This document shows positions 1 through 5,583 of a DNA stretch of 64,000 nt, in pieces (position 1 is the first letter of the stretch; each line of letters begins with the position of its first letter). The DNA lies in NCBI GenBank assembly GCA_963851325.1, contig CAWKOR010000002.1, positions 709,859 to 773,858 on the forward strand, read 5' to 3'. Source of the stretch: an uncultured delta proteobacterium (GTDB lineage Bacteria > Desulfobacterota > Binatia > Binatales > Binataceae). The notes below the pieces were generated by a model. That model worked only from the letters and a program-made list of their open reading frames with translations, was not told the DNA's origin and did no database searches. The translations under genes were made by a program, and so were the position numbers.

Positions 1-503
1 AACAGCTCCCCGGTCGAGCGCCGATCGATCAGATCCAGCACCGTGTTGCCCCACTGATGCCTGCGTTGCACGATGACCGGGCGGGGGGCCGAGGCCGCCG
101 GCATCGTGGTCGCCTCCGGCACTTCGTCGGCGATGGTCAACGGCTCGCTTACCAGGGGGCCATTATTCGCTTTCCAATCGGCGATCCCGCCGCGATAATC
201 GCGAACCATCCGGTAACCGAGTTCAAGGAGACGGCGCACGGCCTCTCCGCCCGCAGTTCAGGTGAAGCTTGCGCAGTAAACCGCGATCTCGGCAGTTCGG
301 TCGGGTAGCAGGCTGGGGGCGAGGGTCTCGACTTCGGTGACCGGAATGTTGATCGCGCGCGGAAGATGCTCTTCGTGAAATAGCGCGCCGAAGCGAGCAT
401 CGACGATGGTTAAGGACGGATCGCGCAGGCGGTTCAGGAGCTCGATGCGCGGAATCTCCTGGACGGTTTGCACGGGACTGGCAGCGGCATTCTCGGAAGC
501 CAT
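1..503 (-). CDS. Rhodanese-domain protein with in-frame UGA (probable selenocysteine, YCASFT-U); continues past the window start
   Basis: ATG at 503. The ORF track stops at TGA 260-258 after ...IAVYCASFT, but the same frame continues TAGGEAVRRLLELGYRMVRDYRGGIADWKANNGPL (canonical rhodanese C-terminal motif) and stays open to base 1. Confidence 0.88.
227..248 (-). promoter_or_regulatory. Candidate bacterial SECIS hairpin of the rhodanese gene
   Basis: mRNA GGAGA-GGC-CGUGC-GCC-G-UCUCC begins 10 nt after the UGA; GCCGU at +16..+20. Confidence 0.65.
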
Positions 504-622: not shown

Positions 623-1006
623 ATGACCTCGCGCAAGATTCAACCAGCATCTCCTTCGCCCACGCGCTCGATTCTCGTGATCGATGACGATGTGGCCGCC
701 ACCGATTCTCTCATCGATATTCTCACCGCTGAGGGTTACGTGGTGGACGCGGCCAAAAATGGCAAGGAAGCACTCCAGCATTTGCGCGATGCGCCTCTGC
801 CCCAGCTCATCATTCTGGATTTGTTCATGCCCGAGATGGACGGATGGGAATTTCGGCGCGCGCAGTTGAAAGATGCGAAGTTGCGCGACATTCCGGTCGT
901 CGTCATGACCGGGGCGAGCGTGTACGCGGGAATCGATGCGAACGTGATCATCCACAAGCCACTGGACGTCGCGCGCTTCGTCAGCCTGGTCGAGCGCTAC
1001 TTCTAA
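623..1006 (+). CDS. Single-domain response regulator (CheY-like)
   Basis: ILVIDDD, LILDLFMPEMDG-like, VMTG and HKP receiver motifs; start at the internal ATG 623 is inferred. Confidence 0.88.
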   Translation: MTSRKIQPASPSPTRSILVIDDDVAATDSLIDILTAEGYVVDAAKNGKEALQHLRDAPLPQLIILDLFMPEMDGWEFRRAQLKDAKLRDIPVVVMTGASVYAGIDANVIIHKPLDVARFVSLVERYF

Positions 1007-2622: not shown

Positions 2623-2817
2623 AGATGATAGAGGGGCGCCTTATCGCGAGGTGTCCTGTTTCGGGTCGTCCCGTCGAAAGATCGAGTCTAGTGACACATT
2701 GTGATTTTCCGATGACACGTGATCATTCGAGACCTGCGTCGGAGACGGCGAAAACGGCGGCATCGCTCTTGCGTTTACCAGTCATACGGAAGGCCACGCG
2801 ACACTTCCGATTTGCCA

Positions 2818-5583
2818 ATGCCTCAAGCCATCGAAACTCCTGAACTCGATCGCGCGACTGCGGATACGAAGCCGCGACCGTGGCTGAACGCGACCCTGGC
2901 GGATGCCTTTATATACTGGTCGGATGACGCTTCCGGCCTGCCCAAGCTGCGCCGCCTGCTATCGATTGCCCTATGCGTGATCCTGGCGTTTGCAACCGCC
3001 TGCCTCTTCAACGCGACCTGGTACGAAAGGATGGAGCTGGCCCCGCTCCCGCTGCGGCTCTTCAATATTGCGTTTACGCTCGCGGCGCTGGTAACGATAC
3101 CTCGCGTATCGCTACGCCACTGGCGAGGGTGGACGATGGCATTTTGTCTGGTCCTCGTAGCGAGCTCTTTTCTGAGCGCGCTGGCGGTGGGCGATGAAGA
3201 GCCGCTGTTTGTGACGCTGTTTGTTCTGGCTTCTGTGACCGCCTTGATTTTGCCGTGGAGTGGCCGCTGGCAAGCCTGCTTCGCAGTCGCGATGGTGATG
3301 GCCACTATCGCAGCTTGGGGGGTCGGCATTGTTCCTAAAAGCTATACGACTCACTGGCTGATCCTGACCAGGGCAACCATCCTCAGCGTGATTGTCGCAT
3401 ACCTGAAAGACTACGCGCGTCGGCAGAGACTTCTGATCGAGGAGTTGCAGGAGCGGGACGCCAGTTTTCGAGTTGAGTCTGAGCAGCGCAGCCGCGCCGA
3501 GGAACGTTTGCGGATCGAGGTCACCGAGCGCCAGGCCGCAGAGCATCTAGTGCAACGACGCGAGGCAATATTGCGCAAGGTGCTGGAGACCAGCCTCGAC
3601 GTGATCATCATCAGCCGACTTCCGGATTTGACCTACATCTATGCAAACGATCAGTTCGGCGCGAGCGGCTATACCTTTGCGGAGGCGAAAGGCCGCACAC
3701 CCGCGGACTTGAACATTTTCGTCGACCCCGCGAAGACCCAGGAAATGGTTGCGGCCGTCATCAGAGACGGTCACTTGCAGGATTTCGAACTCGATATTCG
3801 ATGCAAATCCGGCAAAATCGTTCCCTACCTGGTGTCGGCGGTGCTGATGGAGCTTGACGGCGATCAGTGCATGGTCTCGATGTCGCGCAACATCACCCAG
3901 AGCAAGAAGCTGGAGCGCGAGCTGGTTGCCACGCGCGAGGAAGCCCTGGCCGCATCGCGCGCCAAGTCGGAATTCCTCTCCAGCATGTCGCATGAGATCC
4001 GCACCCCGATGAACGCGGTGCTGGGAATGGCGGATTTGTTGCTCGACACCAAGCTTACCGCGGAACAGCAGCGCTACATCGAGGTGATGGTCGCCAACGG
4101 CAATTCGCTGCTCGAGTTGATCAACAGCATTCTGGATCTGGCGCGCATCGAAAGCGGCCGGATGCTTATCGAGAAAACCGAATTCGATCTCACCGACCTG
4201 ATCGACAAAACCATTTCGACCTTCGGGGTGCAGGCGCATAGCAAGGGCCTCGAGCTGATCGCACGCATCGCTCCAGGAGTGCCCGCGCATCTGATCGGGG
4301 ATCCGCTGCGATTGCGACAGATCCTGATCAATTTTCTCGGCAATGCGATCAAGTTCACCGAACAGGGCGAGGTGATCCTCGATATCGATCGGGTCGATGA
4401 TTCGCAGGAACCCGCGGATTTGCGCTTCACCGTCTCGGATACCGGCGTCGGCATCTCGCCGGCCAAGCTCGAAACGATTTTTTCATCTTTCACACAAGCC
4501 GATTCCTCGACCACCCGAAAGTACGGCGGCACCGGGCTCGGGCTCGCAATCGCGCAACGGCTGGTAGCGCTGATGGGCGGGACCATTTCGGTCGCGAGCG
4601 AACTCGACAAAGGCACCAAGTTTTCGTTCGTCGCGCGCTTCGGACTCGCGACCCGGGTGATTTCGCCGACTGCTCACGTGGTCCTCAACCTCGACCATTA
4701 CCGAGTGCTGGTGGTGGACGATAACCATATCAATCGTCTCATCGCCCGCGAGATGATTTCCAACTGCGGCGCTGAAGTCAGCGAAGCGGCATCCGGCGAA
4801 GAAGCGCTGGCCGCAATTCATCAAGCCTCCGACCAGGGCAAACCCTACAAGATAATTCTGCTCGACATGCGGATGCCGGGCATGAATGGCCTCGAGGTGG
4901 CACAGAAAATCCGCCAGCAACATCTCCCGACCGAGCCGCTGATCCTGATGCTCTCCTCTGACGATTTGCAGCCGCAGCTCGCGCGCCTGAAGGAACTCGG
5001 CCTCGACGCATACCTGGTTAAGCCGATCACGCGCAGAGAACTCTTCGACGCGATCGCGCGGGTTATCCAGGATGCGAATCACAACAGCCTCGATGCGCTG
5101 CCCGACCGCGGCGCCGAGGATGCTCTCCGCACATCCGCAGGCGAAAAGCTGAAAATCAGGATTCTGGTGGCGGACGATTCGGCGGACAATCGGTTGCTGA
5201 TCGGCGCCTACCTCCGTCGCGAACCCTGCGAGTTGGACTTTGCGGAGAATGGCAGGCTCGCGTTCGAGAAGTTCAAGTCCAATCAATACGACATGGTCTT
5301 CATGGACGTACAGATGCCTGAGATCGATGGGCTTACCGCGACCCGGATGATTCGCCAGTGGGAGACGGAGAACCACCGGATCGGGACGCCGATCATTGCC
5401 CTCACCGCATCGGCGCTCGAGGAAGACGTTCGGCGCGCCATCGCGGCGGGATGCGATCGCCATCTCAGCAAGCCGATCAAGAAAACCGTCCTGCTGAGCA
5501 CTATCCAGAGTGTCAGCCTGATGTCCTCCAAGCCGGCCGCGCAATCGCGCGAGGACGCGAGCCCCGGCGCCTTCACGAGCTGA
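2818..5583 (+). CDS. Membrane hybrid sensor histidine kinase (TM region, PAS, HisKA, HATPase, two receivers)
   Basis: SHEIRTPMN H-box, GNAIKFT, GGTGLGL, two REC domains; start at MPQAIE is inferred. Confidence 0.93.
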   Translation: MPQAIETPELDRATADTKPRPWLNATLADAFIYWSDDASGLPKLRRLLSIALCVILAFATACLFNATWYERMELAPLPLRLFNIAFTLAALVTIPRVSLRHWRGWTMAFCLVLVASSFLSALAVGDEEPLFVTLFVLASVTALILPWSGRWQACFAVAMVMATIAAWGVGIVPKSYTTHWLILTRATILSVIVAYLKDYARRQRLLIEELQERDASFRVESEQRSRAEERLRIEVTERQAAEHLVQRREAILRKVLETSLDVIIISRLPDLTYIYANDQFGASGYTFAEAKGRTPADLNIFVDPAKTQEMVAAVIRDGHLQDFELDIRCKSGKIVPYLVSAVLMELDGDQCMVSMSRNITQSKKLERELVATREEALAASRAKSEFLSSMSHEIRTPMNAVLGMADLLLDTKLTAEQQRYIEVMVANGNSLLELINSILDLARIESGRMLIEKTEFDLTDLIDKTISTFGVQAHSKGLELIARIAPGVPAHLIGDPLRLRQILINFLGNAIKFTEQGEVILDIDRVDDSQEPADLRFTVSDTGVGISPAKLETIFSSFTQADSSTTRKYGGTGLGLAIAQRLVALMGGTISVASELDKGTKFSFVARFGLATRVISPTAHVVLNLDHYRVLVVDDNHINRLIAREMISNCGAEVSEAASGEEALAAIHQASDQGKPYKIILLDMRMPGMNGLEVAQKIRQQHLPTEPLILMLSSDDLQPQLARLKELGLDAYLVKPITRRELFDAIARVIQDANHNSLDALPDRGAEDALRTSAGEKLKIRILVADDSADNRLLIGAYLRREPCELDFAENGRLAFEKFKSNQYDMVFMDVQMPEIDGLTATRMIRQWETENHRIGTPIIALTASALEEDVRRAIAAGCDRHLSKPIKKTVLLSTIQSVSLMSSKPAAQSREDASPGAFTS

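Follow-up and report, generated by a model that had tools for sequence, protein, structure and literature searches.

Does the TGA codon that interrupts a rhodanese-like reading frame at the very start of this DNA mark a broken gene, or is it decoded as an amino acid, and if so, what kind of protein carries the resulting residue? The DNA analyzed, referred to below as the window, is a stretch of 64,000 nucleotides (G000:C2:709859-773858), and at its start the minus strand carries the 5' part of a gene for a rhodanese domain fused to a potassium channel. Almost every selenoprotein known from bacteria is a soluble redox enzyme, and selenocysteine (Sec) in the sensor of a K+ channel, if true, would mean that selenium is put to a new use and that a channel is gated in a new way. 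We conclude that Sec is almost certainly the residue inserted at codon 82, because the UGA is conserved, because it alternates with Cys and because it is accompanied by a codon specific to the Sec forms, and we judge these three observations to be decisive. It is also very probable that the locus encodes one 413-residue selenoprotein, with Sec at UGA 82, in which a rhodanese domain, a K+ pore and a CxxC domain follow one another, the presence of Sec in the protein being a prediction from sequence.

The gene and its in-frame stop

With the flanking genome DNA included, the frame comprises 413 codons and ends with a TAA at G000:C2:709123, beyond the window start, and the TGA at codon 82 is its sole internal stop (Table 1). 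A first-pass annotation of this DNA had described an in-frame TGA at codon 82 directly after YCASFT, with the rhodanese continuing in the same frame; the translation of the minus strand reproduces this description and supplies the strand of the feature, which was absent from that annotation. The protein reads MASEN...EIAVYCASFT before the TGA and, in the same frame after it, TAGGEAVRRLLELGYRMVRDYRGGIADWKANNGP, then a Pro/Ala-rich EVPEATTMPAASAPRP, past which the frame stays open and runs off the window start; the pore, the selectivity filter and the C-terminal domain are encoded outside the window. In the search of 61 related genomes, the window gene itself came up as one uninterrupted match over residues 1-413 with one TGA. 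The first-pass annotation had named TGC or TGG in the reads as an outcome that would speak against Sec; contigs of other runs have TGA at the codon: a DNA contig (X1, 245-395) and two RNA-library contigs (X3 and X4, 170-414, which may be one data set and are no proof of transcription) cover the position with no difference. Because contigs of other runs contain the same TGA, an assembly slip is excluded.

Table 1. Features of the rhodanese/K+-channel gene located within the window
Feature	Position in window	Strand	Basis
5' part of the gene, codons 1-167 of 413	1..503	-	Translation; remainder at G000:C2:709123-709858
ATG start codon	501..503	-	N-terminus MASE... common to orthologues G001 and G010
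Rhodanese homology domain (residues 21-112) on both sides of the TGA	168..443	-	PF00581; AF2 pLDDT mostly >90; Foldseek
Cys77 codon, first residue of the rhodanese active-site loop	273..275	-	Invariant in 92 sequences; counterpart of the loop Cys in rhodaneses of known structure
TGA codon (U82), sixth and last residue of the loop C-A-S-F-T-U	258..260	-	Conserved TGA; Cys in other orthologues
SECIS-like hairpin, nt 13-34 (U of UGA = 1)	227..248	-	Fold; family-wide hairpin at the same place
Apical loop of the hairpin, CGUGC, nt 21-25	236..240	-	Fold
Pro/Ala-rich flexible linker, residues 121-146	66..143	-	AF2 pLDDT <50 at residues 122-146
Helix start (residues 147-167) ahead of the first membrane helix	3..65	-	AF2 helices 146-161 and 164-185; Ion_trans_2 at 182-256

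Alternation of TGA and cysteine in the family

Full-length orthologues, with identities of 49-100%, are present in 8 of the 61 related genomes, a set that includes the unpublished genome G026; seven carry exactly one TGA, at 49-74% identity, and these TGA codons fall in one column, YC[AG][SK][FD]T-U, at which the eighth orthologue (G029) has Cys (YCGKLTC). Among the best 80 of 206 relatives from species-representative genomes, which overlap the orthologues just described and are not independent of them, the column is TGA in 69 loci, TGC or TGT in nine and unreadable in two (L093 and L107). When 301 genomes of the class were drawn evenly, 27 of them proved to be carriers, with 28 places in total, 23 with one TGA, four with no stop (among which Cys was confirmed for G029) and one broken. 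The protein databases contain 769 relatives at E <= 1e-3, and 91 of the 95 full-length homologues among the top 120 matches have Cys at the column (87 identified by regular expression and four by eye). An alignment of homologues had been expected, if the first reading of the locus was correct, to give Cys or a conserved TGA at this position, and both were found. Trp, Arg or Gly at the column had been named as an outcome that would speak against Sec; the column is mostly Cys or TGA, and this objection is touched by the W in two of the 95 full-length database homologues (P0035 and P0053, YCGKFTW), both of which carry the Sec-form signature QAVALL. The codon behind the W could be TGG, or it could be a TGA that the gene caller rendered as Trp, and the latter is the likely cause; a metagenome scan for the DNA of P0053 found only a 63% relative (L115), which itself has TGA.

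There is a negligible chance that the locus is a pseudogene or a sequencing error, with a TGA that arose by nonsense change from TGC or TGG in a dead frame: one stop within a frame is what would ordinarily be taken for a broken gene, and broken copies do exist among the relatives (L101, with a frameshift, and a second copy in G201, with both a TGA and a TAG), but the same TGA stands in 69 of the 78 readable species-level loci with 43-74% protein conservation on both sides, is also present in the contigs of other runs and is followed by a conserved hairpin.

Standard gene callers had been predicted to split such a gene, and they do so: 26 of the top 120 database matches are truncated calls, proteins of 268-339 aa that begin just after the column, and the window gene's own database entry (P0003) is a 325-aa call from a GTG downstream of the TGA. 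Calls of this kind would be expected of a locus with two products, namely an 81-residue peptide ending at the UGA and a channel translated from an internal GTG or ATG. Such an arrangement, however, would cut the rhodanese fold in half, as both the Pfam match at residues 21-112 and a confident AF2 domain straddle the stop; moreover, the internal starts vary among orthologues in position and codon (M, V or L), and the Cys forms are single proteins of 400-430 aa. We consider two separate products very unlikely.

A SECIS-like hairpin within the coding sequence

In the window gene, nt 13-20 (counted from the U of the UGA) pair with nt 26-34 to form eight base pairs (8/8 in register C) with G29 bulged, and the apical loop begins 17 nt past the UGA. 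Bacterial SECIS elements are spaced 16-37 nt from the UGA according to the consulted part of PMC10778597, and the spacing in the window gene falls within this range; a stem-loop inside the open reading frame, an apical loop at such a distance from the UGA and a G in the loop are all found here.

The hairpin is a property of the family. The apical loop of its lowest-energy form begins with nt 21 or 22 in 63 of 70 Sec genes, and the other seven adopt another register; G18, G19, C20, G22 and T32 are invariant in all 70, and U23 is present in 65. The 28-nt segment containing it folds at a mean of -12.1 kcal/mol, compared with -5.9 kcal/mol for segments of the same genes, and no more than 10% of same-gene segments fold as well in 59 of the 70 genes (more than 25% do so in two). 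At least six of the eight pairs can be formed in the best register in 68 of 70 Sec forms but in only two of nine Cys forms. The codon at +8, which supplies G22-U23, is the most informative control: it encodes Val (GUN) in 65 and Gly in five of the 70 Sec forms, whereas Val is found there in 4 of 90 Cys forms; because Val is frequent in the Sec forms and rare in the Cys forms, the constraint on G22-U23 must lie in the RNA and not in the protein. A loop codon with GU is a specific mark of the Sec forms, and the Cys forms have no GU-loop hairpin.

Covariation in the hairpin is not significant (a score of 0.122 against 0.123 in shuffles, with 263 of 500 shuffles scoring as high) in an alignment that was fitted to the hairpin model, the stem being conserved rather than covarying. 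A 68-nt stretch of the window gene, taken alone, folds no better than its shuffles (z 0.60; 140 of 200 fold as well). A covariance model built from 33 family hairpins located the expected site in 61 loci, missed the window gene's own hairpin and that of selD at E <= 1, and gave no match in the whole genome, in which 150 of 7478 candidates were scored. RNAalifold returned only four pairs on the ungapped alignment, because the hairpins occupy three or four registers.

Two Cys forms that belong to Myxococcota by record title, L061 and L071, can form six and eight of the eight hairpin pairs, respectively, with no GU loop, and these hairpins look like relics of a lost SECIS.

Selenocysteine machinery of the genome

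The first-pass annotation had proposed to look for selA, selB, selC and selD, and all are present: the genome contains tRNA-SeC, selA (580 bits), selB (374 bits) and selD (387 bits). Among the 61 relatives, again with G026 included, selA scores above the cut-off in 57, and all seven TGA carriers are among these. The selD gene (G000:C1:3681334-3682260, minus strand, locus L011) adjoins selB (C1:3682396-3684288) and itself has an in-frame TGA, in the motif ...AAG-U-AGK; its hairpin has the same geometry as that of the channel gene, with a loop that opens at nt 21 with GG and with U29 bulged. A search of the genome with PF00384 for a Sec-type formate dehydrogenase gave eight matches, none of which has an internal stop.

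The UGA might alternatively be read through without Sec, as Trp or Cys, by near-cognate decoding or under a variant code, and the W written at the column in two database homologues could be taken in this sense. The genome, however, carries the anticodon UCA only on tRNA-SeC, its tRNA-Trp has CCA, and both W entries bear the Sec-form QAVALL; the complete Sec machinery, the SECIS-like hairpin and a selD of the Sec type point the same way, and there is very little likelihood of such decoding. The proposal from which this work started, a hidden selenoprotein consisting of a rhodanese with a CxxxxU loop, is upheld by the TGA in seven of eight orthologues, by the Cys homologues, by the hairpin and by the Sec machinery.

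Architecture of the protein

The Pfam Rhodanese profile (PF00581) matches residues 21-112 with an E value of 1.7e-12 (48.1 bits against a cut-off of 22.2), and such a match across the TGA is far beyond chance. Further along the protein, Ion_trans_2 (PF07885) matches residues 182-256 with an E value of 1.6e-14 (53.9 bits against a cut-off of 22.5), the K+ selectivity filter reads TATSVGYGD, and KcsA matches the pore by sequence at an E value of about 1e-6. An AF2 model computed from an alignment of 92 sequences (mean pLDDT 87.5) begins with a rhodanese fold, after which residues 122-146 form a disordered linker; helices follow at 146-161 and 164-185, then the pore helix (204-219) and an inner helix that extends from 231 to 296, into a helical C-terminal domain. 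The N-terminal part is a rhodanese homology domain by its profile, by its fold and by a catalytic Cys at the start of a six-residue loop, and in a Foldseek comparison with solved rhodaneses it superimposes on 6mxv (E 4.4e-6; rmsd 1.9 A over 108 columns); its rhodanese sulfurtransferase activity is putative. The central part is a two-helix K+ channel of the KcsA kind, with the profile, the GYGD filter and a pore helix flanked by two membrane helices; a K+-conducting tetramer is its putative assembly. The second domain to which the rhodanese had been said to be fused thus turns out to be a two-helix K+ channel pore together with a helical CxxC domain.

The C-terminal domain, of about 160 residues, forms five helices when folded alone (pLDDT 90.7). 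It matches no Pfam family and has no specific structural relative in the PDB (best Foldseek match E 0.035); in a wide comparison with VIA the best Z was 11.3, to generic helical proteins and below the meaningful level for helical bundles, and the ESM Atlas gave no usable match. A complex prediction for the C-terminal and rhodanese domains of the Cys-form protein P0009, for which only database proteins were aligned, returned an uninformative score of 0.00.

Three cysteines, C77, C386 and C389, are invariant in the family alignment, the latter two forming the CxxC, and at least 90% of the aligned sequences have Cys at the position of residue 82. C77 aligns with the loop cysteine of solved rhodaneses, including 6mxv, and residue 82 corresponds to the sixth loop position, at which canonical loops in the same alignment have Arg, Ser or Thr; a two-residue insertion relative to the solved rhodaneses follows it. 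One family member, P0016 (634 aa), has an extra N-terminal methyltransferase domain (UbiE-like) before the rhodanese and the channel.

Comparison with known systems

Rhodanese selenoproteins fall into five forms in a 2026 review (PMC13188914, consulted in part), with the motifs UxxS, UxxG, CxU and UxxG and, in TsoB, UxxxxU. The words potassium, channel, PF07885 and CxxxxU occur zero times in the main text of that review, in which no form with CxxxxU or with a channel is described. The window protein is a variant of these rhodanese selenoproteins, and in the sources searched no second case of a selenoprotein joined to an ion channel came up; a literature search likewise gave no prokaryotic K+-channel selenoprotein, and the window protein scored far below the cut-off of every NCBIfam model that it matched.

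A close counterpart in design is TsoB (NF045694, 'rhodanese form 5'), which, as far as the consulted part of PMC13188914 describes it, is also a Sec rhodanese with two chalcogen residues spaced by x4 and a fusion to a membrane protein. TsoB, however, contains Sec twice and has a membrane part that resembles DsbD, whereas the window protein has Cys in the first position, a K+ pore and no DsbD domain, and it reaches only 31 bits against NF045694, for which the cut-off is 805. We infer that the x4 motifs of the two proteins occupy the same loop columns. Forms 1-4, as presented in the same part of PMC13188914, resemble the window protein in having a single rhodanese domain with Sec in or next to the active-site loop, and none of them is listed there with a channel. 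In forms 1, 2 and 4, the motifs of which start with U, we infer that Sec replaces the catalytic Cys; in form 3 (CxU; NF041203, rhodanese_LYCAU), Sec stands two residues after the catalytic Cys, while in the window protein it stands five after and the Cys is kept. The score against NF041203 is 29.9 bits, compared with a cut-off of 115, and the motif is CxxxxU rather than CxU.

The Cys forms (P0009-P0120, from Candidatus Binataceae, Binatus sp. and others) share the three-part architecture at 46-56% identity, including the invariant C77, C386 and C389 and the K+ filter; they differ in having Cys at the column and no GU-loop hairpin, and they are annotated whole, whereas the Sec forms are annotated as fragments. 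Nature offers a Sec/Cys pair of otherwise identical channels with which the contribution of selenium could be tested. KcsA-type channels (PF07885; PDB 1f6g and 1k4c) have the same pore helix and T-x-x-T/S-V-G-Y-G-D filter between two membrane helices, but they have no rhodanese sensor, and their C-terminal part is a simple helical bundle in contrast to the five-helix CxxC domain of the window protein.

A possible role of the Cys-x4-Sec loop in gating

Sec replaces redox-active Cys in proteins, and the domains fused to K+ pores in other channels are gating sensors. On these two grounds, we suggest a mechanism that starts from the recoding of UGA codon 82 by SelA, SelB, SelD and tRNA-Sec, with the SECIS hairpin placed within the coding sequence. 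As sequence and model show, residue 82 is the end of the six-residue loop, five residues past the catalytic Cys77 (C-x4-U, the equivalent of C-x4-C in the Cys forms), in a cytoplasmic rhodanese that is tied by a flexible linker of about 25 residues to the KcsA-like two-helix K+ pore, and the inner pore helix runs straight into the five-helix cytoplasmic domain with the invariant CxxC. The Cys77/Sec82 pair might then act as a sensor that is redox-active or takes up sulfane sulfur, by way of a selenenylsulfide or a persulfide, and its state would gate the K+ pore, such that K+ flux is coupled to thiol, reactive-sulfur or selenium status. That the state of the pair gates the pore, a reading built on analogy with other Sec proteins and other channels, seems to us quite possible, if somewhat short of an even chance. 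Slightly more tentative is the full form of this idea, namely that the protein may be the first ion channel with a Sec sensor, a tetramer that the Cys-x4-Sec loop would open or close through its redox or persulfide state, and that this state might be passed on to the gating domain at the C-terminus by way of its invariant CxxC.

The main rival to gating accepts the selenoprotein and disputes only its function. The rhodanese part could be a sulfur or selenium transferase or reductase that is anchored to the membrane and has no influence on the pore; its task in the neighbourhood of the channel might be, for instance, the delivery or detoxification of sulfur, selenium or arsenic species. Most rhodanese domains are enzymes, the family has kept its catalytic Cys without exception, and the same genome encodes an apparently membrane-anchored CxxxxC rhodanese without a channel (C2:677210-677548), all of which is compatible with an anchored enzyme. 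Against it stand a fusion to a complete K+ pore that has been kept across several phyla (by record titles), the part that pore-fused domains play as gating sensors in other K+ channels, and the lack of a conserved partner gene at the locus. We regard an anchored enzyme without gating as somewhat less likely than gating. If, instead, the Cys77/Sec82 loop does gate the pore, the membrane potential and K+ balance of soil bacteria would be tied to reactive sulfur species or to the supply of selenium.

Distribution and genomic context

The family is a genuine selenoprotein family, widespread in soil bacteria, that has been annotated as fragments and is absent from the selenoprotein lists examined. 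It is common, as judged from the 769 database relatives and the 27 carriers among the 301 genomes of the class, and by record titles it extends to Acidobacteriota and other phyla: the titles name Binataceae/Binatia, unclassified 'delta proteobacterium' MAGs, Acidobacteriota, Myxococcota, Verrucomicrobiia, Eisenbacteria and Methylococcaceae. The distribution is nevertheless patchy, with carriers in 2 of 10 genomes of the window's own genus and in 27 of the 301 of the class. Because the gene is systematically misannotated as two fragments, the family has been missed both by selenoproteome counts and by the channel inventories of soil metagenomes.

In a quick IQ-TREE search on 74 rows, made without the frameshifted or truncated L101, L089, L103, L112 and L086, seven Cys forms lie in three clusters nested among 67 Sec forms, which corresponds to at least three changes, the direction of which is not readable from this midpoint-rooted tree. 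One of the loci set aside, L101 (1697 onward), has TGT (Cys) at the column, followed by a one-base frameshift, and keeps the SECIS-like GGUCG hairpin sequence; it may have switched from Sec to Cys recently, be a copy in decay or reflect an error in the long reads.

The genes next to the channel gene are not conserved outside the genus. A 384-aa gene located just before the window (G000:C2:707958-709112, plus strand) converges on the channel gene and is read as a putative M50-type site-2 protease with CBS domains, and a 127-aa response regulator consisting of a stand-alone receiver domain (window 623-1006, plus strand) diverges from it; the M50/CBS protease and the response regulator each recur in one of 80 loci, only in a relative of the same genus. 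As there are no conserved neighbours beyond the genus, the genomic context gives no hint of function. A hybrid histidine kinase of 954 aa (window 2719-5583, plus strand) lies 1.7 kb beyond the response regulator.

The channel-less rhodanese paralogue mentioned above (C2:677210-677548, plus strand) is apparently membrane-anchored and has the Cys-x4-Cys loop YCSGGAC. It had come up as a candidate with two TGA codons and proved to be an ordinary Cys protein, the TGAs lying at and after its end. A rhodanese with a Cys-x4-Cys loop, YCRGPYC, is also found fused to an ArsR-type HTH protein at another locus (L023, G031:C406), which points to a use of this kind of loop as a sensor module in further regulators.
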